Of a stretch of 64,000 bases of DNA, positions 4,101 to 50,930 are shown one piece after another; within the stretch, counting starts at the first letter, position 1, and the number at the start of each line of letters is the position of its first letter. The translations under genes were made by a program, and so were the position numbers. The notes under the pieces were generated by a model. It saw only the letters and a list, made by a program, of their open reading frames with translations. It was not told the origin of the DNA and ran no database searches. Source of the DNA: Alphaproteobacteria bacterium (GTDB lineage: Bacteria > Pseudomonadota > Alphaproteobacteria > VGEJ01); the NCBI GenBank assembly GCA_965226045.1, contig CBDDBU010000028.1, positions 1,241 through 65,240 on the forward strand, given 5' to 3'.

Positions 4101-5475
4101 GAGCTATAACCGAATCTTGTGTACGGCGTTGAAATGAAGGCGGCGTATCCTGGTGATTGTTGATGTCACCACTTGAGCTAAGCCAAGGAAGGATAGGCCA
4201 TGAAAGAGAATACCGTTGTTGCTTTTCAAAACCCATCTGATTTTCAGAAAGATCCGTTGACGGAAGTCCTACAAGCTGGAGCTCGCGAGTTGTTGGCCCA
4301 AGCCGTTGAGGCCGAGGTCTCCGTGTTTTTGGGTAGCCATGCGGCGCTTGTTGACGCCGCCGGCCGCCGCCGGGTTGTCCGCAATGGATATCTGCCGGAA
4401 CGCTTCATCCAGACCGGGATCGGCCCGGTGAGCGTGCGCCAACCCCGTGTGCGGGACCGGGGGGACGGCGCCATCCGCTTCACGTCGGCGATCCTGCCGC
4501 GCTATCTGCGCCGCGCCAAGAGCCTGGAAGACCTTTTGCCATGGCTGTATCTGAAGGGCATTTCCACCGGCGACTTCGGGGAAGCCTTGGCGGCGCTCCT
4601 GGGGAGCTCCGCGCCGGGGCTTTCGGCCTCCACGATCACCCGGCTGAAAGAGGTCTGGGGGGTTGAGGCGGAGCGCTGGCAACGGCGCGACCTCACGGCC
4701 AAGCGCTACGTCTATTTCTGGGTGGACGGCATCTATTTCAGCGCCCGCATGGAGGAAGAGAAGCAGTGCATCCTGGTGATCGTCGGGGCCACGGACAAGG
4801 GACAGAAGGAACTGATCGCCATCGCCGACGGCTATCGCGAAAGTGAGCAGTCCTGGCTCGAAGTTCTGCTCGATCTCAAGCGGCGCGGCCTTGAAATGGG
4901 TCCGCAACTGGCGCTCGGCGACGGCGCGCTCGGCTTCTGGAAGGCGCTCCGCCAAGTCTACCCAGGCGCCCGCGAGCAACGCTGCTGGGTTCACAAGACG
5001 GGCAACGTCTTGAACAAGCTGCCCAAGGGTCTGCAAAAGAAAGCCAAGGGGCGCCTGCAAGACATCTGGATGGCCGAAACCAGGAAGGATGCCGAGAGCG
5101 CCTTCGACTTCTTCCTGGAAGCCTACGGGCCGAAGTACGACAAGGCCGCGGCCTGCCTGGCCAGGGACCGCGACGTCCTGCTGACGTTCTACGACTTCCC
5201 CGCCGAGCACTGGAAGCATGTACGCACGACCAACCCCATCGAGAGCACGTTCGCCACGGTTCGTCTGCGCACCTACCGGACCAAGGGCTGCCTGTCGCGC
5301 AAGACGGCGATGGCCATGGTCTTCAAACTATGCCAGTGCGCTCAGAGAAAATGGAGAAAACTCGATGGATCGAACCATCTCGCCGAGATCATTCGCGGCG
5401 TCAAATTCGTAGATGGAGAACGCCAGGATCGCGCCGCCGCATGATCAGCCCATACACAACTTTTGACAATAGCTC
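4101..5475 (+). mobile_element. IS256-family insertion sequence, copy A1 (1375 bp), with a 9-bp TSD TTTTCATCC
   Basis: Ends were defined by comparison with the identical copy A2. Imperfect terminal IRs are GAGCTATAACCGAATCTTGTGTA (left) and TACACAACTTTTGACAATAGCTC (right). Direct repeats sit at 4092-4100 and 5476-5484. Confidence 0.9.
4200..5444 (+). CDS. IS256-family (mutator-type) transposase
   Basis: 414 aa, mutator-type DDE transposase by sequence pattern. Identical at protein level to 27341..28585 (-). Confidence 0.9.
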   Translation: MKENTVVAFQNPSDFQKDPLTEVLQAGARELLAQAVEAEVSVFLGSHAALVDAAGRRRVVRNGYLPERFIQTGIGPVSVRQPRVRDRGDGAIRFTSAILPRYLRRAKSLEDLLPWLYLKGISTGDFGEALAALLGSSAPGLSASTITRLKEVWGVEAERWQRRDLTAKRYVYFWVDGIYFSARMEEEKQCILVIVGATDKGQKELIAIADGYRESEQSWLEVLLDLKRRGLEMGPQLALGDGALGFWKALRQVYPGAREQRCWVHKTGNVLNKLPKGLQKKAKGRLQDIWMAETRKDAESAFDFFLEAYGPKYDKAAACLARDRDVLLTFYDFPAEHWKHVRTTNPIESTFATVRLRTYRTKGCLSRKTAMAMVFKLCQCAQRKWRKLDGSNHLAEIIRGVKFVDGERQDRAAA

Positions 5476-11237: not shown

Positions 11238-11323
11238 CGATCCCATGACCTCTCCACATCGCGATCCGTCCACACCCATTCTCGCGGACTTCAGTCCGAC
11301 AGGCTGCTAGGGGGCGCCCCGGT

Positions 11324-12797
11324 TCAAAATTGGTCGCCGTTGATCAAGAAGTGGACGCCGATGCTGGCGGCGTAGCCCAGCGCTATGGCCCAGGACCATT
11401 TGAGATGACCGAAAAAGGTGTAGACGCCGCGTGCTTGGCCCATGACGGCCACGCCGGCAGCCGATCCGATCGACAAGTAGTGAGCCGCCGACCCCGGCGG
11501 TGAGCGTGACCAGAAGCCACTGTCCATGGCTCATTTCCGGCAGTACCGCGAGGATGGCGAACATGACGGGGATGTTGTCGACCACTGCCGACAACAGCCC
11601 GACCAAGATGTTGGCGTAGGTCGGGCCGAGGTCATCGTACAGGAGCTGCGATCCGAGGCTGAGATAGCCGAGCGCGCCAAGCCCGCCGACGCACAGAACG
11701 ACCCCGTAGAAGAACATCAGGGTGTCCCACTCCGCGCGCTCCAGCGCCTTGAAGGTATTGAATGACTGGCTGGTCGATGCCTGCGGATTTGTGTCTGGCA
11801 TCAGCCCTTCGAGTTCGAGGGCGCTCTCGCCGAGATCGTCCTCTGCTGGGCGCGGGAAGAAGTGATCGCGACGTTTGAGGTAGTAGCCAAAGAGCTTCAG
11901 CAGTCCCAGCCCCGTCATCATGCCGATGACCGGCGGCAAATGAAGGAAGTTATGCGACGCAACGGCCATGACCACCGTCACGATGAAGAGGCCGATCACC
12001 ACGAGCGCCCCGTGCTCAAGCTTGGCGACCTCATCCAGACGATCGGGTTGGCCCTTCGGCATGACAAAACTCATGATGACCGCCGGGACCAGCCAATTCA
12101 CGAGCGCGGGCACGAACAGGACGAAGAACTCCTCGAAGGCGAGGAGGCCCTTTTGCCATACCATCAATGTGGTGATGTCGCCGAATGGGCTGAAGGCGCC
12201 GCCGGCGTTGGCTGCCACCACCACGTTGATACATGCGACAGCCGCGAAGCGGGGTTGGGAGCGGCCCACCGCGACGATAACGGTCGCCATCAGGAGTGCC
12301 GTCGTCAGATTGTCGGCGATCGGAGACAAGAAGAACGCTATTCCGCCCGTCAGCCAAAAGATCGTCCGATATGAGAAGCCGCGCGAGACCAGCCAGGCCC
12401 GCAGAACATCGAACACGCCGCGTTCGTCCATCGCGTTGATGTACGTCATGGCGGCCAGCAGAAAGAGGAAGAGTTCGGCGAACTCGAGCAGATTGTGGCG
12501 GACCGCCTGCTCGGCGAAGGTCGTATCGCCGCTTCCCGCGAAGGCAACGGCCACCAGCGCCCAGATCGCGCCGGCCGCCACCATGACCGGCTTGGACTTG
12601 CGCAGGTGGAGCGTTTCCTCGCCGATCACCAACGCGTAGGCGAAGACGAAGATGATGACGCACACGATCCCGATCCAGTGACCGGTGAAGTCGAGCGCGC
12701 TACTCGCTTCCGCCTCCGACGCGGACGCCACCGATGCCCACAGCAACGACGCGGCGCCGACGACGGTCGGCCACGCGACACGCACCGCAACGGATTT
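11324..12797 (-). pseudogene. nhaD: Na+/H+ antiporter NhaD-family transporter, frameshifted near the 3' end
   Basis: The 533-aa reading matches NhaD/ArsB-fold permeases up to ...LTAGVGGSLL. The conserved C-terminus (SIGSAAGVAVMGQARGVYTFFGHLKWSWAIALGYAASIGVHFLINGDQF) continues in the +1 frame (ORF 11324..11527). One extra base sits near 11490 (non-homopolymer). The GTG start overlaps the upstream stop. Confidence 0.65.
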
Positions 12798-15476: not shown

Positions 15477-15598
15477 ATGATGCCGCGCCTGACCTTAGCG
15501 AGCCCGAGACTAGGGAACCATGCGCGCGTCGGGCCAGCGCGGCTGACACATGACTCGATCGTTGGCGCCGAGACGTTACCTGTAGACATGCAGGTTCT

Positions 15599-17048
15599 CG
15601 GAGATGTCCCGGTCGATGTTGAAAAGTTGAGGTAGGTGTCGCTCTCCTGGAGCCGTTAGGCTCCGGGTGCTGCAAACCCAAGAGGGAGAACGACACCATG
15701 GGAAAGAATATCCGTAGTTCCAGTAGCCCGAAAGCCCTTGCCACCTCGTTTCCTATGCCGCCGCTGGCAGACGCGATGGACGCAGTCCGTCTCAGCGTGG
15801 ATCGGTTCTGTCTCCTGGCCGGGGTCGAGGCCTTGGCCGAGATGATGGAGGAGGACGCCACGACCGTGTGCGGGGCCCGACATCGTCGCCATGGGAACCG
15901 TCGGGGTTATCGCTGGGGCCATACGCAGAGCGAGATCGGCTACCACGGCGGCCGCGTGAAAGTGCAGCGGCCACGGGTTCGCGACCATGCTGGCAAGGAG
16001 GTGGGTTTGGAGAGCTGGCAGGTGCTGCGCGACGGCAACCTGTTGCTCGAGTGGGCGCTCAACCTGATGGTGCTGAACGTGTCGACCCGCAAGTACCACC
16101 GCGCGGTCCGTCTGCCCGAGGGCGACCTGGCGAAAGCGCGTGGCGACGGCACCTCGAAGTCGGCCGTTTCCCGGCGCTTTGTGGCGCTGTCGCGCAAGAA
16201 GATGAAGGCCTGGCTTGCCTCGGACCTCTCGGAGCTCGACCTGCTGGTCATCCAGATCGACGGTCTGCATGTCGGCGACCATGTCTTGGTGGCGGCGATC
16301 GGCGTCGATGGCAACGGCGACAAGCATGTCCTGGCCGTGGTCGAGGGGGCGACGGAGAACACTGTCGTCGTCCAGGCCTTGCTCGACAATCTCCTCGCCA
16401 GGGGGCTCGATCCGACGCTGCCCCGGCTGTTCATCGTCGATGGCGCGAAGGCGCTCAGCAAAGCGATCCGCAACACCTTCGGTGTGGCCGCCGCCATCCA
16501 GCGCTGCCAGGTCCACAAGGGCCGTAACATCATCGAGCGCCTGCCCCTGCATTTGCATGCGAGCGTCAAGAAGGCGCTCCGTCAGGCCTGGGACCAGGAC
16601 GACGCAGACAAGGCCGAACGGCTGCTGCGCAACCTGGCCCGGCGTCTGGAGCATGAGGAACCGGGCGTCTCGGGCAGCATCCTGGAGGGGCTGGACGAGA
16701 TACTCACCGTCATCCGCCTCGGCCTGCCGCACGAACTCCGGCGCTCGCTCGCCTGCACCAACATCGTCGAGAACGCGCTCGGCACGGTGCGCCAGGTCAC
16801 CCGCAACGTCAAACGCTGGAGACACGCCGAGATGGCGCTCAGATGGACCGCCGCCGGCCTGCTGGAGGCCCAGAAAACCTTCCGTCGCCTCAAGGCCTAT
16901 CGTCAGCTGCCCATCCTCCGAAATGCTCTCCAGGAACACTTGAGAAAGGCTCAGGCCGACAGTGCCATTGAAACCATCATGAAGGCAGCATAGCATCATC
17001 AACCAGCGACGCCTGCCCCACGAATTTCAACAGAGATAGGGACATCGC
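15599..17048 (+). mobile_element. IS256-family insertion sequence, copy B1 (~1450 bp), flanked by the 9-bp direct repeat CAGGTTCTC
   Basis: Ends were defined by comparison with copy B2. IRs are GGAGATGTCCCGGTCGATGTTGAAAAGTTG and, by reverse complement, GATGTCCCTATCTCTGTTGAAATTCG. Direct repeats at 15590-15598 and 17049-17057. Confidence 0.85.
15698..16993 (+). CDS. IS256-family (mutator-type) transposase, type B
   Basis: 431 aa, mutator-type DDE transposase by sequence pattern. ~99% identical to 25810..27195 (-). Confidence 0.9.
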   Translation: MGKNIRSSSSPKALATSFPMPPLADAMDAVRLSVDRFCLLAGVEALAEMMEEDATTVCGARHRRHGNRRGYRWGHTQSEIGYHGGRVKVQRPRVRDHAGKEVGLESWQVLRDGNLLLEWALNLMVLNVSTRKYHRAVRLPEGDLAKARGDGTSKSAVSRRFVALSRKKMKAWLASDLSELDLLVIQIDGLHVGDHVLVAAIGVDGNGDKHVLAVVEGATENTVVVQALLDNLLARGLDPTLPRLFIVDGAKALSKAIRNTFGVAAAIQRCQVHKGRNIIERLPLHLHASVKKALRQAWDQDDADKAERLLRNLARRLEHEEPGVSGSILEGLDEILTVIRLGLPHELRRSLACTNIVENALGTVRQVTRNVKRWRHAEMALRWTAAGLLEAQKTFRRLKAYRQLPILRNALQEHLRKAQADSAIETIMKAA

Positions 17049-18977
17049 CAGGTTCTCAATGACACGCTGTACGAAGTTGCGGGTTTCCGCGACGGGGATC
17101 AATTCGATCCAGTCGATAACGTCGATTTCACCCCGTCGCGGGTCGCCCCAATTGCGAAGCCAGCGGCGGGTTCGTGTGCCGCCGGCGTTGTACGCCGCGA
17201 GGGCCAGTACGTAGGAGCCGTCGTAGGCGTCCACCAGCGTGCCGAGGTAGCTGCCGCCGAGCCGTCAGGTTGTAGTCTATATCGTCGAGCAAGCGTCGTT
17301 CGCTATAGCCAATCCGCAATCGCCGCGCCTCGGACTTTGCTGTCGCCGGCATCACCTGCGTCAAGCCACGCGCGCCGGCGGAACTTATGGCCCCCTGGTT
17401 GAAGTCACTCTCCTGCCGCGCGACCGCCAACACCAGCGCCGGCTCGACGGCAAAGTCGTCCGGCAGGTCGAGGTGCGGGTAGGCGGGCCCGACGAGGAAG
17501 ACGCCGCAGCGCAGCGCGAGCTTGGCGGCCGAGATGGCCAGCTCGGGCCGACCCACGCGCTGCGCCAACGCGCCCACCAGGGCATGCTCCCCCGGCGTAT
17601 CGACGATGTCCGCGAGGCGGAGCAGGAACGAACGTTGCAGGTAGCGCTGCCCGAGTTGATGGAGGAGAAGAACGACGTCGACAAGCTCGCGCCGCCTGAA
17701 GCGCGCAACATCCTCCTCGGTGGGGTGGGGGTCGGCGGGAATATCCAGCGCCGCCGCGCCGTTCGCGTGCGCGTTGGCCAGCTGGCCGTAGAACGTCGCT
17801 GGGTGCGTGGCGGCCTGAGCGTACCAGCCATGCGCGAGCGCCGTCTCTCCTATCGCCGTGGCGGCGCTGGCCGCCCAATATCCGGCGCGCGCCTTGCTTA
17901 TCGGGAATCTGGCGAGCGCGTGCATGCGTTCGAAGTGAGTCAGCGCGGTACGGCCGTCGCCGAGGAATCGGAGCGCTATCCAACCGGCCAGCCATTCCGC
18001 CTCCGACGCCGGGCCACGCTCGACCTGGCCGTGCTCGGCAGCCAGCCGATACGCCTCCGAGACGCTCCCATCCTCTAACGTCTCGCGAAGCTGCAAGTGC
18101 CGTTCGAGCCACCACTTGTCGGCCCGAATGAGATCGGCGGGCGTATCGGCCAACAACTCCCGTGCGCGATCGTGGAAGCCCTTGCGCCGCTGCCAGCAGA
18201 CCCGCTCATAGATCAATCCGGCATGACGCTTCAGCTCGGCGGGAACCTTCGCGATCGCCTCATCGACGGTGGGACCCGACAGCATCAGGAACAGGCGCGG
18301 CTCGCCGAGCAGCCCCTGGTCGGCGCTGACCCGTGGCAGCATATGCCGGGCCGGCCGTAGGCGCTCGTCCCACAGCAGGCGATCGAGGCGACCCGCGTCG
18401 ATTTCTGGACCCAACACCTTCTTGTAGCGGAGATAGAACCGGCGCTCCTCGGCCGCTCTCAAATCGCCGTTGACCCATGCGTCGCGGAGGGCGGCGTCAC
18501 TGTCGACGATCAAGCCGGCCTCGCGGAGTGCTTCGGCAAAGGCCGCTCGTGCCGGACCGGATAGCGGGGGATGAGAGCGGAACCAATCGATGGTCTCCGC
18601 TGCCGGCAGGGCCAGCGCCGCGCGCGCCACGGTGCGCAGCAATGCGGCTGAGCTTGGCCAGTCCTCGCTTTTGGCGATGAAGTCAGCGATCTCGCGGAAT
18701 GGCACCTGCGCCCCGGGCCGTGCAGTGGTACCAACGAATTATCTTCGCGGCCAGCGGGTATCCTACCCCGGCCGCCAGCCCATGGGCCGAGGTCCACCGA
18801 CCCGAGTTGGCGCTCTTGAACGCGCGCAAGGCCCGCAGCATATCCGCCTTCGAAAGGCCGGAGCGGGCAACGCTGTCATTGGCTTTCAGTGAAGATCGGG
18901 CTTTCGGCGAGGACCGGCGTCGCCGCGACGATCAGAATAGTGCTGACCAGGATGGCTATGGATCTCGGGCTGTTCAC
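17049..18977 (-). pseudogene. slt: Soluble lytic murein transglycosylase (Slt70 family), decayed by at least three frameshifts and 3' IS insertion
   Basis: Reading pieces lie in three frames. Signal peptide VNSPRSIAILV...AE, then ...ADMLRALRAFKSANSGRW...PLAAKIIRWYHCTARGAGA in a second frame, then FREIADFIAKSEDWP... in a third. A +1 at ~17265 (DYNL|RLGGSYLGTLVDAYDGSYVLALAAYNAGG) returns to the first. The native last codons HVYR-stop lie at 15576-15589 beyond IS-B1. The IS TSD duplicates codons ENL. Confidence 0.7.
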
Positions 18978-19169
18978 GATACCTGCACGTCATTTGCGCC
19001 GCGCCGCATTCGACCGGCGTGCGCATGATAGCTGTGCCGGACGGCCGCCAACAACGACGCGACGGTGCTCGGGCTGGTGACCTGGTGGGGACGGCGCGCA
19101 CGCTTGCCGGCGACCCGGCGCTGCGGCTATGGTGCGGCTCCCCAACGACATCCTATGAAGGCCTTGGCC

Positions 19170-20045
19170 ATGTTCAAGGGATCTTTCACGGCCTTGATCA
19201 CGCCCTTCCGCAACGGAGGCGTGGACGAGAAGTCTTTTCAAGAGTTCGTCGAGTGGCAGATCCAAGAGGGCGCGCACGGCGTCGTGCCGTGCGGCACGAC
19301 CGGAGAGTCGCCGACGTTGAGCCATGCTGAGCACATGCGCGTGACCGAGTTGTGTGTCGAGGTAGCGGACAAACGGGTGCCGGTTGTCCCCGGCACGGGC
19401 TCGAATTCGACCGAGGAAGCGATCGAACTATCACGACATGCCAAGGAGGCGGGCGCCGACGCCACCCTCCATGTGACGCCATATTACAACAAACCCACTC
19501 AGGAAGGCCTCTACCAGCACTACAAGGCCATCCATGACGCCGTCGACATTCCGATCATCATTTACAACATCCCCGGCCGCAGCGTGGTGAACATGTCGAT
19601 CGACACGATGGCGCGGCTGGCCGAACTCCCTGGGGTGATTGGCGTGAAGGACGCGACGGCCGATCTCGCGCGGGTGAGTTCGACGCGGCTCAGGCTGGGG
19701 TCGGATTTCTGCCAGATGTCGGGCGAGGACGCGACCGCGCTTGCCTTGATGGCCCATGGCGGCCACGGCTGTATCTCGGTCACCGCGAATGTCGCGCCGC
19801 GCGCCTGCTCCGAGTTCCAGACCGCCTGCCTGAACGGCGACTACGGCGCCGCCCTGGCCTACCAGGATCGTTTGATGCCGTTGCACGAAGCGCTGTTCCT
19901 CGAAACAAGTCCCGCGCCGGTCAAATATGCGGCCAGCTTGCTGGGAAAATGCGAGAACGCGGTGCGCCTACCTCTGGTCGAAGTGGGCGATAGTACCAAG
20001 GCCAGCGTCAAGGCCGCGATGCAGGCGGCGGGCCTGCTCAACTGA
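19170..20045 (+). CDS. dapA: 4-hydroxy-tetrahydrodipicolinate synthase
   Basis: [13 protein letters not shown]... is a typical DapA N-terminus, with GTTGE and the active-site lysine region. An alternative ATG lies at 19155. Confidence 0.85.
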
Positions 20046-20053
20046 CCGCGAAC

Positions 20054-20515: not shown

Positions 20516-21147
20516 TCCCCGTCGATCAATTCCCGGACGCGGGCAACGACGGCGTCAAACATCTCGACCGTGAGCCGGCCGGTATTGGTGTTGTAGCGGG
20601 AACAATGGTAGCTATCGGCCAATGTGAACCCGCCGGGCGGGGAGTGCAGGGCACCGTGGGCGAAGGGGTACGCGGCCTGTCGTGCGTCCAGTGCGGCGAC
20701 CACACTACGGTGCGCGATCGTGCCAAGCGCGAGAATCGCTCTCAGGTTGGGGAGAGACGCAATCTCGTGGCGTAGGAAGGAGCGGCAGGTGTTGATTTCC
20801 GTGGCGGTCGGGCGATTTTGCGGCGGCACACATCGAACGGCGTTGGTGATCCGGCACCGAGCGAGTGTGAGGCCATCATCGGCGGACCGATCATAGTGGC
20901 CGCGCGCGAAGCCATAGGCCGTCAATGTGCGATAGAGGAGGTCGCCGGCGAAGTCGCCGGTGAAGGGCCGGCCTGTTCGGTTGGCGCCCGACACCCCCGG
21001 CGCCAAGCCGACGATCAGCAATGCCGCGTCGCAACCTCCGAAGGCGGGAACGGGCGCGTTGTGCCAGTCGGGTTTGGCCTCCCGGTTGACGCGGCGGAAC
21101 TCGGCTAAACGCGGGCATCGGTTGCAGTCGGTCGGCGGTTCGGTCAC
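20512..21147 (-). CDS. Uracil-DNA glycosylase, family 4/5-like (Fe-S type, UdgB-like)
   Basis: CNRCPRL cysteine motif and [25 protein letters not shown] motif. A GTG start is assumed. Confidence 0.65.
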
Positions 21148-25396: not shown

Positions 25397-25804
25397 ATGA
25401 TGATTATCGGGCTCGGCAACGACCTCATAGATATTCGGCGCGTTGAGCGGACGCTTGAGCGGTTCGGTGATCGATTCATCAAGCGCATCTACACAGACGT
25501 TGAGCGCGAAAAGGCTGAACGGCGGTCCAACCGCGCGGCGACCTACGCTAAGCGCTTCGCCGCCAAGGAGGCATGCTCCAAGGCGCTGGGCACTGGTTTT
25601 CGGCGCGGTGTGTTCTGGCGCGATATGGGGGTCACGAACCTTGCTTCTGGGAAACCGACGATGGTGCTCTCGGGCGGTGCGCGCAAACGCCTTGAAGAGA
25701 TCACGCCCGCCGGCATGGTGGTGCAAATCGACCTCACGCTGACCGACGATCACCCGCTGGCGCAGGCCATCGTGATCATCTCGGCGCTTCACGCCGAGAC
25801 CTAA
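25397..25804 (+). CDS. acpS: Holo-[acyl-carrier-protein] synthase
   Basis: [16 protein letters not shown]...[11 protein letters not shown] is the canonical AcpS pattern. Confidence 0.9.
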
Positions 25805-25809
25805 GCGCC

Positions 25810-27195
25810 TTATCGTGATTTCGGCCTGCGAGACCTAAGCGATGATGTCCCTATCTCTGTTGAAATTCGAGGGGCAGGCGTCGCTGGTTGATGATGCTGT
25901 GCTGCCTTCATGATGGTTTCAATGGCACTGTCGGCCTGAGCCTTTCTCAAGTGTTCCTGGAGAGCATTTCGGAGGATGGGCAGCTGACGATAGGCCTTGA
26001 GGCGACGGAAGGTTTTCTGGGCCTCCAGCAGGCCGGCGGCGGTCCATCTGAGCGCCATCTCGGCGTGTCTCCAGCGTTTGACGTTGCGGGTGACCTGGCG
26101 CACCGTGCCGAGCGCGTTCTCGACGATGTTGGTGCAGGCGAGCGAGCGCCGGAGTTCGTGCGGCAGGCCGAGGCGGATGACGGTGAGTATCTCGTCCAGC
26201 CCCTCCAGGATGCTGCCCGAGACGCCCGGTTCCTCATGCTCCAGACGCCGGGCCAGGTTGCGCAGCAGCCGTTCGGCCTTGTCTGCGTCGTCCTGGTCCC
26301 AGGCCTGACGGAGCGCCTTCTTGACGCTCGCGTGCAAATGTTGGGGCAGGCGCTCGATGATGTTACGGCCCTTGTGGACCTGGCAGCGCTGGATGGCGGC
26401 GGCCACACCGAAGGTGTTGCGGATCGCTTTGCTGAGCGCCTTCGCGCCATCGACGATGAACAGCCGGGGCAGCGTCGGATCGAGCCCCCTGGCGAGGAGA
26501 TTGTCGAGCAAGGCCTGGACGACGACAGTGTTCTCCGTCGCCCCCTCGACCACGGCCAGGACATGCTTGTCGCCGTTGCCATCGACGCCGATCGCCGCCA
26601 CCAAGACATGGTCGCCGACATGCAGACCGTCGATCTGGATGACCAGCAGGTCGAGCTCCGAGAGGTCCGAGGCAAGCCAGGCCTTCATCTTCTTGCGCGA
26701 CAGCGCCACAAAGCGCCGGGAAACGGCCGACTTCGAGGTGCCGTCGCCACGCGCTTTCGCCAGGTCGTCGCCCTCGGGCAGACGGACCGCGCGGTGGTAC
26801 TTGCGGGTCGGCACGTTCAGCACCATCAGGTTGAGCGCCCACTCGAGCAACAGGTTGCCGTCGCGCAGCACCTGCCAGCTCTCCAAACCCACCTCCTTGC
26901 CAGCATGGTCGCGAACCCGTGGCCGCTGCACTTTCACGCGGCCGCCGTGGTCGCCGATCTCGCTCTGCGTATGGCCCCAGCGATAACCCCGACGGTTCCC
27001 ATGGCGACGATGTCGGGCCCCGCACACGGTCGTGGCGTCCTCCTCCATCATCTCGGCCAAGGCCTCGACCCCGGCCAGGAGACAGAACCGATCCACGCTG
27101 AGACGGACTGCGTCCATCGCGTCTGCCAGCGGCGGCATAGGAAACGAGGTGGCAAGGGCTTTCGGGCTACTGGAACTACGGATATTCTTTCCCAT
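25810..27195 (-). CDS. IS256-family transposase, type B, copy 2. The stop codon is mutated (TAG to CAG), so it reads through 30 codons past the IS end.
   Basis: 461 aa against 431 aa for B1. Differences include EGDL to EGDDL, PLHLH to PQHLH and loss of the stop codon. Confidence 0.8.
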   Translation of the reverse strand: MGKNIRSSSSPKALATSFPMPPLADAMDAVRLSVDRFCLLAGVEALAEMMEEDATTVCGARHRRHGNRRGYRWGHTQSEIGDHGGRVKVQRPRVRDHAGKEVGLESWQVLRDGNLLLEWALNLMVLNVPTRKYHRAVRLPEGDDLAKARGDGTSKSAVSRRFVALSRKKMKAWLASDLSELDLLVIQIDGLHVGDHVLVAAIGVDGNGDKHVLAVVEGATENTVVVQALLDNLLARGLDPTLPRLFIVDGAKALSKAIRNTFGVAAAIQRCQVHKGRNIIERLPQHLHASVKKALRQAWDQDDADKAERLLRNLARRLEHEEPGVSGSILEGLDEILTVIRLGLPHELRRSLACTNIVENALGTVRQVTRNVKRWRHAEMALRWTAAGLLEAQKTFRRLKAYRQLPILRNALQEHLRKAQADSAIETIMKAAQHHQPATPAPRISTEIGTSSLRSRRPKSR

Positions 27196-27293
27196 GGTGT
27201 CGTTCTCCCTCTTGGGTTTGCAGCACCCGGAGCCTAACGGCTCCAGGAGAGCGACACCTACCTCAACTTTTCAACATCGACCGGGACATCTCC
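25842..27293 (-). mobile_element. IS256-family insertion sequence, copy B2 (inverted relative to B1). No flanking direct repeat detected.
   Basis: Same IRs as B1. Flanks are atcgcttaggtctc (acpS side) and ttgcctg (8 bp from the IS-A2 TSD). It differs from B1 by a few SNPs and a 3-nt indel. Confidence 0.8.
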
Positions 27294-27309
27294 TTGCCTG
27301 CCCGGTATT

Positions 27310-28684
27310 GAGCTATTGTCAAAAGTTGTGTATGGGCTGATCATGCGGCGGCGCGATCCTGGCGTTCTCCATCTACGAATTTGACGCCGCGAATGATCTC
27401 GGCGAGATGGTTCGATCCATCGAGTTTTCTCCATTTTCTCTGAGCGCACTGGCATAGTTTGAAGACCATGGCCATCGCCGTCTTGCGCGACAGGCAGCCC
27501 TTGGTCCGGTAGGTGCGCAGACGAACCGTGGCGAACGTGCTCTCGATGGGGTTGGTCGTGCGTACATGCTTCCAGTGCTCGGCGGGGAAGTCGTAGAACG
27601 TCAGCAGGACGTCGCGGTCCCTGGCCAGGCAGGCCGCGGCCTTGTCGTACTTCGGCCCGTAGGCTTCCAGGAAGAAGTCGAAGGCGCTCTCGGCATCCTT
27701 CCTGGTTTCGGCCATCCAGATGTCTTGCAGGCGCCCCTTGGCTTTCTTTTGCAGACCCTTGGGCAGCTTGTTCAAGACGTTGCCCGTCTTGTGAACCCAG
27801 CAGCGTTGCTCGCGGGCGCCTGGGTAGACTTGGCGGAGCGCCTTCCAGAAGCCGAGCGCGCCGTCGCCGAGCGCCAGTTGCGGACCCATTTCAAGGCCGC
27901 GCCGCTTGAGATCGAGCAGAACTTCGAGCCAGGACTGCTCACTTTCGCGATAGCCGTCGGCGATGGCGATCAGTTCCTTCTGTCCCTTGTCCGTGGCCCC
28001 GACGATCACCAGGATGCACTGCTTCTCTTCCTCCATGCGGGCGCTGAAATAGATGCCGTCCACCCAGAAATAGACGTAGCGCTTGGCCGTGAGGTCGCGC
28101 CGTTGCCAGCGCTCCGCCTCAACCCCCCAGACCTCTTTCAGCCGGGTGATCGTGGAGGCCGAAAGCCCCGGCGCGGAGCTCCCCAGGAGCGCCGCCAAGG
28201 CTTCCCCGAAGTCGCCGGTGGAAATGCCCTTCAGATACAGCCATGGCAAAAGGTCTTCCAGGCTCTTGGCGCGGCGCAGATAGCGCGGCAGGATCGCCGA
28301 CGTGAAGCGGATGGCGCCGTCCCCCCGGTCCCGCACACGGGGTTGGCGCACGCTCACCGGGCCGATCCCGGTCTGGATGAAGCGTTCCGGCAGATATCCA
28401 TTGCGGACAACCCGGCGGCGGCCGGCGGCGTCAACAAGCGCCGCATGGCTACCCAAAAACACGGAGACCTCGGCCTCAACGGCTTGGGCCAACAACTCGC
28501 GAGCTCCAGCTTGTAGGACTTCCGTCAACGGATCTTTCTGAAAATCAGATGGGTTTTGAAAAGCAACAACGGTATTCTCTTTCATGGCCTATCCTTCCTT
28601 GGCTTAGCTCAAGTGGTGACATCAACAATCACCAGGATACGCCGCCTTCATTTCAACGCCGTACACAAGATTCGGTTATAGCTC
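27310..28684 (-). mobile_element. IS256-family insertion sequence, copy A2 (1375 bp, inverted relative to A1), with an 8-bp TSD CCGGTATT
   Basis: Direct repeats at 27302-27309 and 28685-28692. It ends 30 bp upstream of the lepB ATG. Confidence 0.9.
27341..28585 (-). CDS. IS256-family (mutator-type) transposase, copy of 4200..5444
   Basis: The identical 414-aa product. Confidence 0.9.
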   Translation of the reverse strand: MKENTVVAFQNPSDFQKDPLTEVLQAGARELLAQAVEAEVSVFLGSHAALVDAAGRRRVVRNGYLPERFIQTGIGPVSVRQPRVRDRGDGAIRFTSAILPRYLRRAKSLEDLLPWLYLKGISTGDFGEALAALLGSSAPGLSASTITRLKEVWGVEAERWQRRDLTAKRYVYFWVDGIYFSARMEEEKQCILVIVGATDKGQKELIAIADGYRESEQSWLEVLLDLKRRGLEMGPQLALGDGALGFWKALRQVYPGAREQRCWVHKTGNVLNKLPKGLQKKAKGRLQDIWMAETRKDAESAFDFFLEAYGPKYDKAAACLARDRDVLLTFYDFPAEHWKHVRTTNPIESTFATVRLRTYRTKGCLSRKTAMAMVFKLCQCAQRKWRKLDGSNHLAEIIRGVKFVDGERQDRAAA

Positions 28685-28714: not shown

Positions 28715-29467
28715 ATGGCCAACAGAACGCGCCTCGGGACAAAGAGAAAACAAAAAGGCGGTATTGGCGAGACTATTCGCACCGTCGTCTATGCGGTGTT
28801 GATCGCGCTCGTCATTCGCACGGTCGCCTACGAGCCCTTCAATATCCCGTCAACGTCGATGTTACCGACGCTGCTGGTGGGCGATTACTTGTTCGTGTCG
28901 AAGCACGCCTATGGCTACAGCCGCCACTCACTGCCGTTGAGCGTGCCGCTGTTCTCGGGCCGAATCATGTCCGGTGAGCCAAAGCGTGGCGACGTCGTCG
29001 TCTTCAAGACACCGCGCGACAACAGCACGGACTACATCAAGCGGGTCGTCGGATTAGCCGGCGATCGGGTGCAGATGAAGCGTGGCGACCTGTACGTGAA
29101 CGGCGAGCTCATCAAACGCGAGCGGCTCGAGGACTCGACCCACCAAGGCCGCGACGGCAAGCCAATCGCCCAATATCGCGAGACGCTGCCGGACGGGCGA
29201 AGTTATGTGACCCTTGATTTTGGGCCTGATTATCCTCACGACGACACGCCGGAATACACCGTCAAGCCCGGCCATTACTTCATGATGGGCGATAACCGCG
29301 ACAATTCGACGGACAGCCGGGTCATCGGGCAGGTCCCCGCCGAGAACTTGATCGGGCGCGCCGAGGTCATTTTTTTCTCGACCAATGGCAGCGCGGAATT
29401 CTGGGAGGTCTGGCGGTGGCCGGCCGCGATCCGATTCGCTCGGCTGTTCACCGTCTTGTCATTATGA
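28715..29467 (+). CDS. lepB: Signal peptidase I
   Basis: N-terminal TM segment, SMLPTL Ser box, KR(V/I)VGLAGD and GDNRDNSTDSR boxes. Confidence 0.9.
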   Translation: MANRTRLGTKRKQKGGIGETIRTVVYAVLIALVIRTVAYEPFNIPSTSMLPTLLVGDYLFVSKHAYGYSRHSLPLSVPLFSGRIMSGEPKRGDVVVFKTPRDNSTDYIKRVVGLAGDRVQMKRGDLYVNGELIKRERLEDSTHQGRDGKPIAQYRETLPDGRSYVTLDFGPDYPHDDTPEYTVKPGHYFMMGDNRDNSTDSRVIGQVPAENLIGRAEVIFFSTNGSAEFWEVWRWPAAIRFARLFTVLSL

Positions 29468-42883: not shown

Positions 42884-43740
42884 TTAGGCACCGTCCGAGC
42901 TGGCTATCGCCTCCTCGAGTTCGGCGAAACTCGGACGTTGATGGGAGAACAGTGTTTTCCGCGCGAACTCGATCGAGACGGCCGGGGCATAGCCCTGAAG
43001 ATGGGCGAGCAGGCCGGCTTCGATGCATTGATAGTACTTGGAGTCCGCGTCGGCCCACATCTCGAGGTTGCGGCTGCTGGGGCTCACGAATCCGTACGCC
43101 AACAAGATGCCGAGGAAGGTACCGACCAACGCGCCACCAATCAGCTTGCCGAGGATCTCGGGTGGGTCGGTGATGTGCCGCATCGTTACGACCACCCCAA
43201 GGACCGCCGCCACGATGCCGAATGCCGGCAGGCCATCACCAACATTCGTGACGGCTCCCGCCACCGCCGTCGCCTCGCCGTGGTGGGTCTCGATGTCCTC
43301 GTCGATCAACGCCTCTAATTCGTGGGGATTCTCGGTCCCCATGGTAATCAGTCGCAGGTAGTCGCACAGAAAATGAACGGCGTGCTTGTTCTTCATGAAC
43401 TTGGGGTATTCTTGGAATAGGGGACTCTCTTCTGGCGTCTCGATGTGCGTTTCCAGCGCCAACATCCCCTTCGACTTGGCGAGCCGAAAGATCGCGAACA
43501 AGAGCGTCAGAAGTTCGACATAGGCCGCCTTGTTGTGGGGGGGGCTTTGAGAACTCGCCCGGGACTCTTGAACACCGCGACAATTAGAGTCTTCGGATTG
43601 GAGAGAAGAAAAGCGCCGAATGCGCCGCCGCAAATTATCAGCACCTCGAAGGGCTGCATCAGCACGGTGAGGTCGCCGTGGGGCATATAGCCGCCCAACA
43701 CGGACCCGATCATCACCACTACGCCAATTATCGCCCACAT
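42884..43740 (-). pseudogene. motA: Flagellar motor stator protein MotA, frameshifted at a G8 homopolymer
   Basis: The N-terminal 95 aa (MWAIIGVVVMIGSVLGGYM...) lie in one frame and the rest (...KAAYVELLTLLFAIFRLAKSKG...) in another. The junction is at G8 (43527-43534). A ninth G would restore ...VLKAPPHNKAAYVELL... Confidence 0.7.
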
Positions 43741-43858
43741 GCTTCGCCAACCCGTCTCACAGTGAAGAAACAGCCGCCGATGCTTCTGCATGGGCGGTAA
43801 ATTCGTAACCGGCCGTTAGGCCATGATCACCCCGTCACGCCACGGCCCGCGCGCAAGA

Positions 43859-47574: not shown

Positions 47575-48385
47575 ATGACGCTGCAACGGACGCACACGCT
47601 CCGGCGGCCGGGCACGGAACTGCCCCGCTACAGTTCCGTGCGCCAAATGCTTGGCGAGCTGCGCCCAAGCTACCCGGTGTATTGTCTATGGCCGTCTCCC
47701 CTTGGTCAGCGCCGCACGATGGTTCATCACGCATTTTCCCGGCGAGGTTCGGTACGCCGTCAAATGCAGCCCGCATCCGTTCGTCCTCGATACGCTTCAT
47801 GCGGTCGGCATTCGCCAATTTGACACGGCATCGCTGCCCGAGATCGCTCTTATCAGCGAGCGGTACTCCGATGTCGTCAGCTATTTCCATCATCCGGTCA
47901 AGCCGCGCGCGGCGATCCACAGCGCCCGCCACGTATACGGTATTCGCCACTTCACCGTCGATTCCGAGGCCTAACTCGACACGATCACGGCCGAGACCGG
48001 CGGCGGCGATCTCGCGGTGCAGGTGAGAATAGCGACCCTGGTCACTCGCGCGGCCATCGATCTCTCCCGCAAGTTCGGAGCGCCGCCGGAAAGGGCGCCA
48101 GAGCTTCTGCGTGCGGTCGCGGCGGCCGGATACGAGCCCGGCATTTCCTTTCACGTGGGTTCCCAGTGCCTCGAACGGGATGCGTTCCGCACGGCGCTCG
48201 CGTTGACGGCGGACGTCTTGGGCGCGGCCGGCGTCGAGATAGGAGCGCTGAATGTTGGCGGCGGGTTTTCGGCGGCTTACCCGGATCTGGAAGCCGCTGA
48301 CCTCGACGCCTATACCCGCGCTATCGCGGCCGGGCTGGACGACCTTTGGCGGCCGGCGGGCTGCGCTGTTCTCTGTGAGCCGGCG
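47575..48385 (+). pseudogene. Ornithine/lysine decarboxylase (fold-III PLP decarboxylase), N-terminal part, with a +1 frameshift, an in-frame TAA and IS21 truncation
   Basis: ...RPSYPVYC, then a shift at ~47690, then LPLVSAARWFITHFPGEVRYAVKCSPHPFVL...FTVDSEA-TAA(47972-74)-LDTITAETGGGDLAVQVRIATL...GISFHVGSQ...NVGGGF...VLCEP, then the IS21 left end at 48386. Confidence 0.75.
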
Positions 48386-48588
48386 TGTCAATCGGCGTTG
48401 AACATTGACCCCCTATCGGCGTGCAATGTTGACCCCTTTGGGGATGCACGGCGGAGGTCGTACAGGTAGTCCATAGGAGGGGCCCGCGCGCGGGCCGACG
48501 CGCCCACCACGCGGCTGGCGGCGGACCGCGTGTGGGAGGTTCCTGTGGGCCCACCTGGGCGACCGGGCCGCAGGTGGATCGGTTGCCT

Positions 48589-49317
48589 TTAGGACCGATT
48601 CTTGAAGCGCCAGGAGTCGTTTCCGGTCTCGATGATCTCGCAGTGGTGCGTCAGACGATCGAGGAGCGCGGTGGTCATCTTGGCGTCGCCGAAGACGGAC
48701 GGCCATTCGCCGAAGGTCAGGTTGGTGGTGACGATGATCGAGGTGCGCTCGTAGAGCCGGCTGACGAGGTGGAACAGCAGCTGGCCTCCGGTTTGGGCGA
48801 AGGGCAGGTAGCCGAGCTCGTCGAGGATGACGAGGTCGCGCCGGGCCAGCTGATCGGCGAGCCGGCCCTGGCGGCCGGCGCGGGCTTCGGCCTCGAGCCG
48901 GTTGACCAGGTCGGCGACGTTGAAGAAGCGGCCCCGGGCGCCATCGCGGATGCAGGCCCGCGCGATGGCGACGGCGAGATGGCTCTTGCCGGTGCCGGTG
49001 CCGCCGATCAGCACGGCGTTGCGCTGGTTGGCCAGGAAGCCGCCGACCGCCAACTCGCGGACCAGCGGCTCGTTGACCGGGGTGTCGGTGAAGTCGAAGT
49101 CGGCCAGCTCCTTGGCCAGCGGCAGCTTGGCGCCACTCATCTGGTACTTGATGGATCGCGCCTGCTTGTCGGCGATCTCGGCCTTCAACAGCTCGCCGAT
49201 GATTCGCTGCATCGGATGCTGGCGCTTGAGGCCGTCGGCGAGCACCTCGTCGAACGCGTCGCGCATGCCGGCGAGCTTGAGTGCGGCCATCATCTCCAGG
49301 ACCTCATGGCGCTCCAT
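48589..49317 (-). CDS. istB: IS21 helper ATPase IstB
   Basis: 242 aa. Walker [10 protein letters not shown], Walker B DELGY. Confidence 0.85.
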
Positions 49318-50815
49318 GGCCGACCCCCCTCAAGCGGTCGTAGCGGGTGCAATCGGCCACCGGCTCAAAGCGAAGACGCAGGTTCGCGGGCGTCGGGATC
49401 GGCGCCGTCTCGGACGGCTGGCGCCGACGATTGAGGATGTTGAGCACGACGTCGGCGCTGCACACGCCGCCAGCGAGCGCCTCGGCACAGGCGGCCTCCA
49501 CCGCCGCCAGCCCATCCGCCAGCACGGCGGTGAGGATCTCGACCATCTGCCTGTCGCCGTCGTCGTGGCCGGCGAGCCGGACGCGCACGCGACCCAGGGC
49601 GCCGGGCAGCGCCCAGTCCTTGAACGGCGCGCCGTTACGAAGCGCACCGGGCTTCCTCGCCAGCACGGGCACCTAGTGCCACGGGTCATAGACGGTCTGG
49701 TCGCGGCCGAAGCGCCGGGCATGCTCGGCGACGATCTCGCCGTCCTGGCGGATGACGATGCGATCGGCGTAGGCATGGACCTCGACCGGACGGCCGACGG
49801 CGCGCGCCGCCACGCTGTACTTGTTGCTGTCGAAGCGCACCAGGCAGGTCTTCGACACCGACGCCGGGACCGCGTGGAAGCCGTCGAACGGCCCGCGATA
49901 GCCGACCAGGGACGGACGCTCGTCCTCGAACACCTGCCAGACAGTCCTGTCCTTGAACACCGGGTGGGGATGACCCCGGGCGTAGGCGACGCACTGGTCC
50001 AAGAGCCAGGCGTTGAGCTCGTCGTAGGTCTTGAAGCGCAGCCGCGGGGTGAAGAACCGACCGCGGATGATCCCGACCTGGTTCTCGACCTGCCCCTTCT
50101 CCCATCCCGCTCCCGGCGTGCATGCTGTCGGTTCGACCAGGTAGTGGCCACACATCTGCACGAAGCGCCGGTTGAACGCGCGCTCCTTGCCGATGAGGAC
50201 GGTCTGCACCGCCGTCTTCATGTTGTCGTAGATGCCTCGCCGGCAGGCACCCTGGAACAGCCGGAATGCCCGGTCGTGGGCGTCGAACACCATCTCCTGG
50301 CTCTCGCGCGGATAAGCGCGGACGAAGAACATTCGGCTGTGGCACAGCCGGACGTGCGCGACCTTGACCTTGGTCGTCACCCCCGCCAGCACCACGTACT
50401 CGTGGCTCCAGTCGAACTGATAGGCCTCGCCCGGCGAGAACACCAACGGCACATAGGTCTGCGCCGTCGATGCCGAACGGCGCCACCGCCACGCCTTGGC
50501 GTAGCGCCGCACCGCGTCGTAGCCGCCGCCATAGCCCAGACCCTCGAGGGCTTCGGAGATCCGTAGCAGCGTCAGCCGCTCCCGCTTCGACTTGGTCTCG
50601 TTGGCCTCCAGCATCCGCTCCAGCTCGGCCGTCCACGGCCCCAGCTTCGGCATCGGCTGGACCCGCCGGTCGTAGGTGAACGCCGTCGCCTGCGAACGGA
50701 TCACCTTGCGCACCGTGTTGCGCGAGACCTTCACGTCCCGCACGATCTCCTTGATCGGCTTCCCCTTGACGAAATACTCCCGCCGGATCCGCGCTATCGT
50801 CTCCACGACCAACAT
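49304..50815 (-). pseudogene. istA: IS21 transposase IstA with an in-frame amber codon (TAG at 49673-49675)
   Basis: ...QTVYDPWH-TAG-VPVLARKPGALRNGAPF... The stop and the downstream ORF are in the same frame. Family members have Tyr at this position. Confidence 0.75.
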
Positions 50816-50930
50816 CCCCCACCACCTCGTCCGCCCAAAAACGAGGTGACTTGGACTAGCCAGGCTCAGGGGGGCAAATTTGGACGCCGATCACCCCTCA
50901 ACAGGGGTCAACTTTGCACGCCGTTCCACA

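Follow-up and report, generated by a model that had tools for sequence, protein, structure and literature searches.

The soluble lytic transglycosylases Slt70 of Escherichia coli (1QSA) and Slt of Pseudomonas aeruginosa (5OHU) are proteins of about 660-680 amino acids (aa), in which a signal peptide is followed by a long helical N-terminal region and a catalytic domain. Work in Vibrio cholerae has shown that a single lytic transglycosylase is enough for growth; the enzymes are collectively essential and individually redundant (PMC8820737). Likewise, deletion of sdpA alone, which encodes a soluble lytic transglycosylase of Caulobacter crescentus, causes no growth defect and results in beta-lactam sensitivity (PMC11980594). 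The gene considered here, slt, lies on the minus strand of a 64,000-nucleotide (nt) stretch of DNA from an uncultured member of the Alphaproteobacteria (GTDB lineage VGEJ01; assembly GCA_965226045.1, contig CBDDBU010000028.1, positions 1,241 to 65,240), referred to below as the window. Its ancestral footprint (15510-18977) is interrupted by an insertion sequence (IS) of the IS256 family, designated IS-B1. At a probability of about 0.92, slt, once the gene of a periplasmic Slt-type (family 1, SLT-domain) lytic transglycosylase, is a genuine pseudogene that is fixed in the population.

Lesions in slt and their recurrence in other assemblies

The ancestral slt gene ran from a GTG start (18977-18975) to a TAG stop (15512-15510), a length of about 664-680 codons. 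Within this footprint, a listing of open reading frames (ORFs) together with direct reading yields three minus-strand remnants: a signal-peptide ORF from the GTG at 18977, a 525-aa ORF (18705-17128), and an 85-aa ORF (17234-16977). A filter based on GC content at third codon positions proved too crude for gene finding at 64% GC, and a codon-usage log-odds map of the window was used instead; it recovered the slt remnants as well as fragments of a CitMHS-family transporter gene. The 525-aa ORF, the longest left, has no signal peptide, and its final 45 codons are out of frame. Public data contain its exact sequence (P0151) along with the near-identical P0001, P0153, and P0154. The 85-aa ORF ends in ...ETRNFVQRVIENL before passing into foreign sequence.

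A search with the 525-aa ORF identified P0002, an intact homologue of 680 aa with 76% amino acid identity. The gene order smpB-dapA-slt-HAD hydrolase-alpha/beta hydrolase-PALP-CitMHS is common to the window, to the locus of P0002 (L003), and to a third locus, L004. Because L003 shares this order with the window, P0002 is the true syntenic orthologue of the window gene. The slt product of L004 (P0003) is a second, more distant intact orthologue with 61% identity, and it was taken as the outgroup.

When P0002 is used as a tblastn query, the window gene is recovered as five collinear pieces on the minus strand, which together cover query residues 17-680: 18980-18900 (residues 17-43), 18886-18695 (42-104), 18720-17263 (98-583), 17261-17049 (584-654), and 15620-15513 (645-680). 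The reading frame changes exactly three times along these pieces, in line with a reading made from the sequence alone (the sequence-only reading), which had described slt as a multi-hit pseudogene needing at least three frame changes and had proposed alignment as the way to locate each indel. That alignment, done by tblastn with P0002 and at the DNA level, places indels of +19, -2, and +1 nt. The exact positions come from aligning the window gene, with the IS excised, to the slt DNA of L003 and inspecting the sequence contexts.

Frameshift a (18868-18900) is a net +1 change, consisting of 19 extra nt relative to L003, and falls after the cleavage site of the signal peptide and before the start of the mature protein. 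The 5' fragment of the gene (18876-18977, read from a three-frame translation) retains the GTG start and the signal peptide MNSPRSIAILVSTILIVAATPVLA, followed by ES, and then meets a premature TGA at 18878-18876; it corresponds to P0002 residues 17-43. Translation begun at the native start codon thus covers just 33 codons, and the frame of the mature protein has a stop upstream and cannot include the signal peptide. Frameshift b (18718-18724, at about 18721) is a 2-nt deletion at orthologue codon 97, the window reading CACTGCA--CGGCC and L003 CACTACACGCGGCC. Frameshift c (17262-17263), at orthologue codon 583, is one extra G (CTGACGGCTCGG in the window versus CTCACGCTCGG in L003). It lies within the catalytic SLT domain, between the E-S and GLMQ motifs and the AYNAG motif, and it is past this point that the 525-aa ORF is out of frame. 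Programmed frameshifting was considered as a candidate and rejected, there being no slippery or homopolymeric motif at any of the shift sites.

The fourth lesion, d, is the IS256-family insertion in the ENL codons (orthologue codons ~651-653). Downstream of IS-B1 (15600-17049), the minus strand reads ENLHVYR-TAA, and the TAA (15576-15578) is lesion e, a derived nonsense codon: the orthologue has TAC (Tyr658) and the outgroup P0003 has His. The sequence-only reading had taken HVYR-stop to be the end of the gene, split off by the IS. The split is present; the stop, however, arose by TAC>TAA, and the natural end is the TAG at 15510-15512. The ancestral ORF ran 21 codons beyond the TAA to this TAG, which sits 34 bp upstream of the start of the next gene, and the intervening tail (15510-15575), RLGANDRVMCQPRWPDARMVP plus TAG, can be aligned to the tail of the orthologue, RLGGGDRVMYRPRALDARTVP. 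Relative to the intact orthologue, slt thus carries five lesions: three frameshifts, an IS insertion, and a nonsense codon.

A likely Shine-Dalgarno sequence (18979-18986) is AGGAGAT in L003; a 1-nt deletion has made it AGGTAT in the window, and it is AGGGAT in L001 and L086, two of the assemblies described below. The loss of this base may be a further, regulatory lesion of slt, with an effect that is a matter of conjecture.

Since translation ends after 33 codons and no ORF joins an export signal to a complete catalytic domain, no active Slt enzyme is predicted to be made from slt.

Whether the frameshifts are real can be judged from five other assemblies of the same species that cover slt, at 99.86-100% identity to the window and from at least four samples; no contig among those fetched matches the window exactly. 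These are L001 (ERZ21829562, a 718 kb contig), L002 and L086 (both from ERZ28669063, contigs of 8.9 kb and 680 kb), L087 (ERZ28763718, 625 kb), and L085 (a 2.3 kb contig in the Logan assembly of run ERR14231557). All three frameshifts are present in five of the five, as is the slt-side junction of IS-B1. L001, L086, and L087 show the whole of IS-B1 followed by the HAD gene. L085, which ends 26 bp into IS-B1, matches the window without a single difference (100% identity) along 2178 bp.

It could be argued that errors of long-read sequencing or of assembly account for the frameshifts, in which case the gene would be interrupted by the IS alone or would be intact. The style of the contig names (ctg...l, ctg..._10x_l) does resemble that of long-read metagenome assemblies, which can carry indel errors, and an extra T private to L001, in a TT/TTT run, could be such an error. 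However, the same three indels are found in six assemblies, the window included, from at least four samples, and one of these is the separately built, 100% identical Logan contig. Furthermore, long homopolymers are not involved: the indels are a gain of 19 nt, a loss of 2 nt in a CGCG context, and a gain of 1 nt in a GG doublet. The 12 neighbouring genes are also essentially clean, with one frameshift in total over 3609 codons when compared with L003, versus three in the 680 codons of slt; by hand calculation, the binomial probability of finding at least three of the four frameshifts in slt is ~0.014. An origin in error is consequently very improbable. Because the same three frameshifts recur in the five other assemblies, sequencing error as their cause is excluded for practical purposes. 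A single-frame, full-length slt, which would have overturned the claim of a pseudogene, is seen in none of these assemblies, and the disabling lesions, judged against an intact syntenic orthologue, are reproducible among them.

The extra T of L001, at window position 18821 within slt (GCGTTTC versus GCGTTC), is possibly a strain-private fourth frameshift, reflecting further decay within the population, or a read error in the T run.

Family placement and possible loss of constraint

The frame-corrected translation of slt contains the SLT domain PF01464 at residues 505-607, with a score of 88.4 bits (cut-off 21.3), and this domain is present in 120 of 120 homologues among the matches listed. The catalytic Glu of the E-S motif is kept, ARQESDFN aligning with TRQESAF of P. 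aeruginosa Slt, whereas the GLMQ motif downstream has been mutated to GLTQ. By domain score and catalytic residue, the ancestral product is an SLT-domain (family 1) lytic transglycosylase. Its architecture is that of a signal peptide and an N-terminal region of ~480 residues ahead of the catalytic domain, and Neisseria LtgA can be aligned over residues 377-662. Slt70 and P. aeruginosa Slt are alike in length, in the E-S motif, and in the PF01464 domain, which matches with E ~1e-21 over the final ~140 residues, and probably also in layout. They differ in that the sequence alignment is confined to the catalytic domain and in that the window gene is dead. PF27553, present in most slt homologues, gives no match to P0002 or to the window copy.

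The sequence-only reading had called the gene a homologue of Slt70. The SLT domain and the apparently Slt-type layout bear this out in part. However, because the score on the NCBIfam Slt equivalog model (NF008631/PRK11619) is 106.4 bits against a cut-off of 536, with the alignment covering profile positions 491-640 of 644, slt is not an equivalog of E. coli Slt70. From its sequence, the predicted product is Slt-type, or Slt70-like, and is not Slt70. Among NCBIfam models, the catalytic domain is matched best by one for flagellar-assembly lytic transglycosylases, with 133 bits, under the cut-off of 234. A scan of contigs from 185,579 GTDB species representatives with P0002 gave a best match of 47% identity, the top matches (44-47%) coming from metagenome-assembled genomes of uncultured Alphaproteobacteria, Stellaceae, Ferrovibrio, and Rhodospirillaceae. 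The species and genus of the host thus appear to lack a representative in that collection. A scan of metagenome contigs with P0001 gave no match. Within the 64 kb, a six-frame hmmsearch with an SLT-domain profile built from 115+ homologues found the two slt fragments only and no paralogue.

The sequence-only reading had also held that several lesions in one gene imply a long-standing loss of function. Part of this is borne out. The lesions are fixed in all sampled strains, which differ from each other by ~0.1-0.14%, and the loss of slt predates all of these strains. In addition, amino acid changes have accumulated in excess. In a relative-rate test with P0003 as outgroup, 63 replacements are specific to the window and 28 to the orthologue (p=3e-4); for six neighbouring genes, the counts are 46 and 50 (p=0.76), and the difference between slt and its neighbours is significant by Fisher's test (p=0.005). 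When the remaining sites are polarised by 113 wider homologues, the counts for slt are 101 and 60 (p=0.0015). Derived changes on the window lineage are thus 1.7-2.2 times those of the intact orthologue. At the 139 columns with a conservation of 90% or more, the window gene deviates 13 times and P0002 8 times. Four of the window states at such columns (D>I, A>P, R>C, and the M>T that turns GLMQ into GLTQ) are absent from 115 homologues.

These observations bear on the idea that slt is still functional, either as a split or shortened protein or with its frame restored by programmed frameshifting or by slippage during transcription. The 525-aa ORF does survive with a coding-like codon signature, and the catalytic Glu-Ser motif (QESDF) is retained. 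Nevertheless, the signal peptide is confined to a 33-codon ORF apart from the rest, while the 525-aa ORF has no export signal and loses its frame in the catalytic domain at codon 583. Expression of a working enzyme would need three independent corrections plus excision of the IS, and the acceleration of amino acid change includes conserved positions. That slt retains a function is therefore improbable in the extreme.

The preferred explanation is that slt became dispensable and drifted, its role presumably being covered by other lytic transglycosylases; small indels, a nonsense mutation, and the transposition of a very abundant IS would then have accumulated. Several points weigh against this explanation, and against a loss that is old. 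Compared pairwise with L003 by the Nei-Gojobori method, the frame-corrected gene of the window has a ratio of nonsynonymous to synonymous substitution (dN/dS) of 0.279 (dN 0.151, dS 0.542). This value is at the top of the range for the 12 neighbouring genes (0.075-0.262; 0.143 when pooled) and is far from 1. Furthermore, branch dN/dS, estimated by nucleotide parsimony with L004 as outgroup, is equal on the two lineages (0.44 versus 0.42), although this is a weak comparison, since synonymous sites are probably saturated at 61% identity. Finally, the presence of other lytic transglycosylases in the genome is an assumption, none being encoded in the window. Because of the pairwise and branch values, it would appear that most of the divergence of slt from its nearest relative arose under constraint, with about one-fifth of the branch then passing without it. 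The unconstrained period would thus be long relative to the diversity among strains (~0.1%) and short relative to the divergence from the nearest known relative.

The IS256-family insertion IS-B1

IS-B1 is 1450 bp long (15600-17049, plus strand), with ends GGAGATGTCCC... and ...GGGACATCGCC, and carries an intact transposase gene for a protein of 431 aa (15698-16993, plus strand). The transposase scores 224 bits on the NCBIfam IS256-family model NF033543 (cut-off 150) and 110 bits on the Pfam model Transposase_mut, PF00872 (cut-off 21). The terminal inverted repeats, of 25 nt, are imperfect (80% complementary). Together with the flanking duplication of 8-9 bp and a single ORF in an element of the ~1.3-1.5 kb size class, these features identify IS-B1 as an IS256-family element, and the earlier claim that such an element had inserted in the ENL codons of slt has held.

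The repeat CAGGTTCTC is found at 15591-15599 and at 17049-17057, abutting IS-B1 exactly; the chance of a 9-mer match at two fixed positions is ~4e-6. Read on the coding strand, the repeat gives GAG AAC CTG, or ENL, within ...FVQRVIENLHVYR, and the upstream junction still reads so. Thus, the 9-bp repeat of ENL codons that had been described is present, as is its reading. The duplication itself, however, is probably 8 bp, AGGTTCTC, with copies at 15592-15599 on the left and 17050-17057 on the right. The C at 15591 completes the ENL codons on the minus strand, and the ninth matching C, at 17049, is most simply the last base of the IS; if this terminal C is counted, the match is 9 bp. The shorter length is favoured because ten further IS-B copies with an identical transposase all end in ...GGGACATCGCC, and most of them (7 of 10) have clean 8-bp (possibly 9-bp) duplications.

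At the far end of the IS in L002 (7529-8914, compared with the window from 15599 downward), the element joins unrelated sequence of lower GC content rather than the slt tail and the HAD gene. L086, from the same sample, keeps the arrangement of the window, and the alternative flank has no match among the fetched loci. The L002 flank stems either from a rearranged strain that co-exists in the sample or from an assembly that switched paths at the repeat.

The exact transposase protein of IS-B1 is encoded on 324 public contigs. The slt case is evidence that IS-B is an active, high-copy element. Its closest annotated relatives, as found in PLSDB, are IS256-family transposases on Bradyrhizobium plasmids (64-69% aa identity) and that of ISNha10 from Nitrobacter hamburgensis (64%). 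IS-B shares with these a single ORF for a DDE 'Mutator-type' transposase, a length of ~1.45 kb, imperfect inverted repeats, and duplications of 8-9 bp; it is set apart by the transposase sequence, which is just 64-69% identical to theirs. IS-B is probably an unnamed IS256-family element.

Gene decay in an IS-rich setting

In total, the window contains five IS copies, belonging to three elements, and four damaged genes besides slt. Comparison of the window with itself revealed a second copy of IS-B, IS-B2 (25844-27295), which is 99.3% identical to IS-B1. It has no target-site duplication; 7 substitutions and a 3-nt indel separate it from IS-B1, and a change at the stop codon leaves an ORF of 461 aa. 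A second IS256-family element, IS-A (1375 bp), is present as two inverted copies (4101-5475 and 27310-28684) that are 100% identical and have the duplications TTTTCATCC and AATACCGG; its transposase, of 414 aa, scores 319 bits on NF033543. IS-A2 lies 14 bp from IS-B2, between a 135-aa ORF (25397-25804) and a 250-aa ORF (28715-29467). An IS21-family element (IstB, 48592-49329; IstA, 49676-50890; minus strand) is directly downstream of a broken gene for an Orn/Arg/DAP decarboxylase. An in-frame stop (49673-49675) after IstA is followed by a 122-aa ORF without a Pfam match.

In two IS-B copies carried by a single 3.6-Mb contig (L090, L092), the flanks have been exchanged reciprocally, CTGTGGTA / CGATTTGG, which indicates an inversion by IS-IS recombination. 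Strains of the species to which the window belongs vary in their IS content. Just past smpB (20519-20521), L001 and L002 diverge wholly from the window and lose the UDG gene there; at the same place in L086 and L087, the genes beside smpB are of IS type (rve, DDE_Tnp_1, IstB, HTH). The window keeps the ancestral UDG-HPPK-rpoZ-relA order of L003.

Among the damaged genes, that of the CitMHS-family transporter (11307-12797, minus strand) has a 1-nt insertion at ~11460 (GGCTCACTACTTG versus GGCTCGCT-CTTG in L003). This +1 frameshift, common to L001, lies about 50 codons before the end of the gene, so that the final ~50 residues are replaced. In smpB, the GTG annotated as start codon in L003 corresponds to GCG (20048-20050) in the window, with no ATG, GTG, or TTG until 20138, which would cost the protein 31 conserved N-terminal residues; the product reported by gene callers is 125 aa for the window versus 156-157 aa for relatives. 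The gene either uses a rare start (CTG at 20042) or is impaired. The motA gene (42887-43815, minus strand) is apparently frameshifted: MotA_N (43510-43815) and MotA_ExbB (42887-43756) are in different, overlapping frames, and the coding signal changes frame near 43550. Finally, in the stretch 47579-50890, which also contains the IS21-family element, the decarboxylase gene has an in-frame stop at 47972-47974 and is without the C-terminal domain.

Given this setting, the claim that the loss of a major peptidoglycan-recycling enzyme is notable was overstated. Because lytic transglycosylases are redundant (PMC8820737, PMC11980594) and the window combines five IS copies with four other damaged genes, the loss of one Slt-type gene is unsurprising; the case is one of ordinary gene decay in an IS-rich setting with other broken genes. 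The decay of slt would fit a wider erosion in the same 64 kb. A literature search for slt pseudogenes combined with IS elements found nothing specific.

Alternatively, the loss of slt could have been adaptive, either by lowering anhydromuropeptide release in host-associated life or through co-loss with the flagellar apparatus, the stator gene motA being frameshifted. The split of motA between two frames in the same window, the flagellar-assembly model as best NCBIfam match, and the fixation of the lesions in all sampled strains would agree with this. However, the flagellar match falls well below its cut-off and covers the generic catalytic domain alone, and the dapA-slt synteny is that of a housekeeping gene in related genomes. 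Moreover, damage to unrelated genes nearby (the CitMHS transporter, the decarboxylase, the smpB start) fits general drift. An adaptive loss is thus improbable, and slt is better regarded as a gene that drifted once it was dispensable.

By itself, slt matters little: one lytic transglycosylase of an assumed redundant set has decayed and received an IS256-family insertion. For annotation, it provides a clean case of a fixed pseudogene, verified several times over, for which gene callers report a 525-aa "SLT" protein that could not be functional. It is also one data point suggesting an IS-rich, pseudogene-accumulating uncultured alphaproteobacterium. The best functional analogy for the cost of the loss is SdpA of C. 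crescentus, like the slt product a soluble SLT-domain lytic transglycosylase of an alphaproteobacterium. The sdpA gene was deleted experimentally, whereas slt decayed naturally. If the organism has lost its only soluble Slt, this analogy predicts that it would be more sensitive to beta-lactams.

A broader and rather doubtful possibility is that slt marks an undescribed alphaproteobacterial lineage early in IS-driven genome erosion, and that its loss belongs to a remodelling of the envelope that was adaptive or linked to lifestyle. If so, there would be a massive expansion of IS256 and IS21 elements, with IS-IS rearrangements that differ between co-occurring strains, and a joint decay of slt (envelope), motA (motility), CitMHS (transport), and possibly the smpB start (trans-translation), as would be expected of bacteria that have recently moved to a restricted or host-associated way of life. 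Expansion of IS together with the accumulation of pseudogenes is known from recently niche-restricted bacteria, such as Shigella, Bordetella pertussis, Burkholderia mallei, and Orientia. The window differs from these cases in that its neighbouring genes are without a general acceleration of protein evolution. It shares with them a high density of IS, several frameshifted or truncated genes, and swapped IS flanks.

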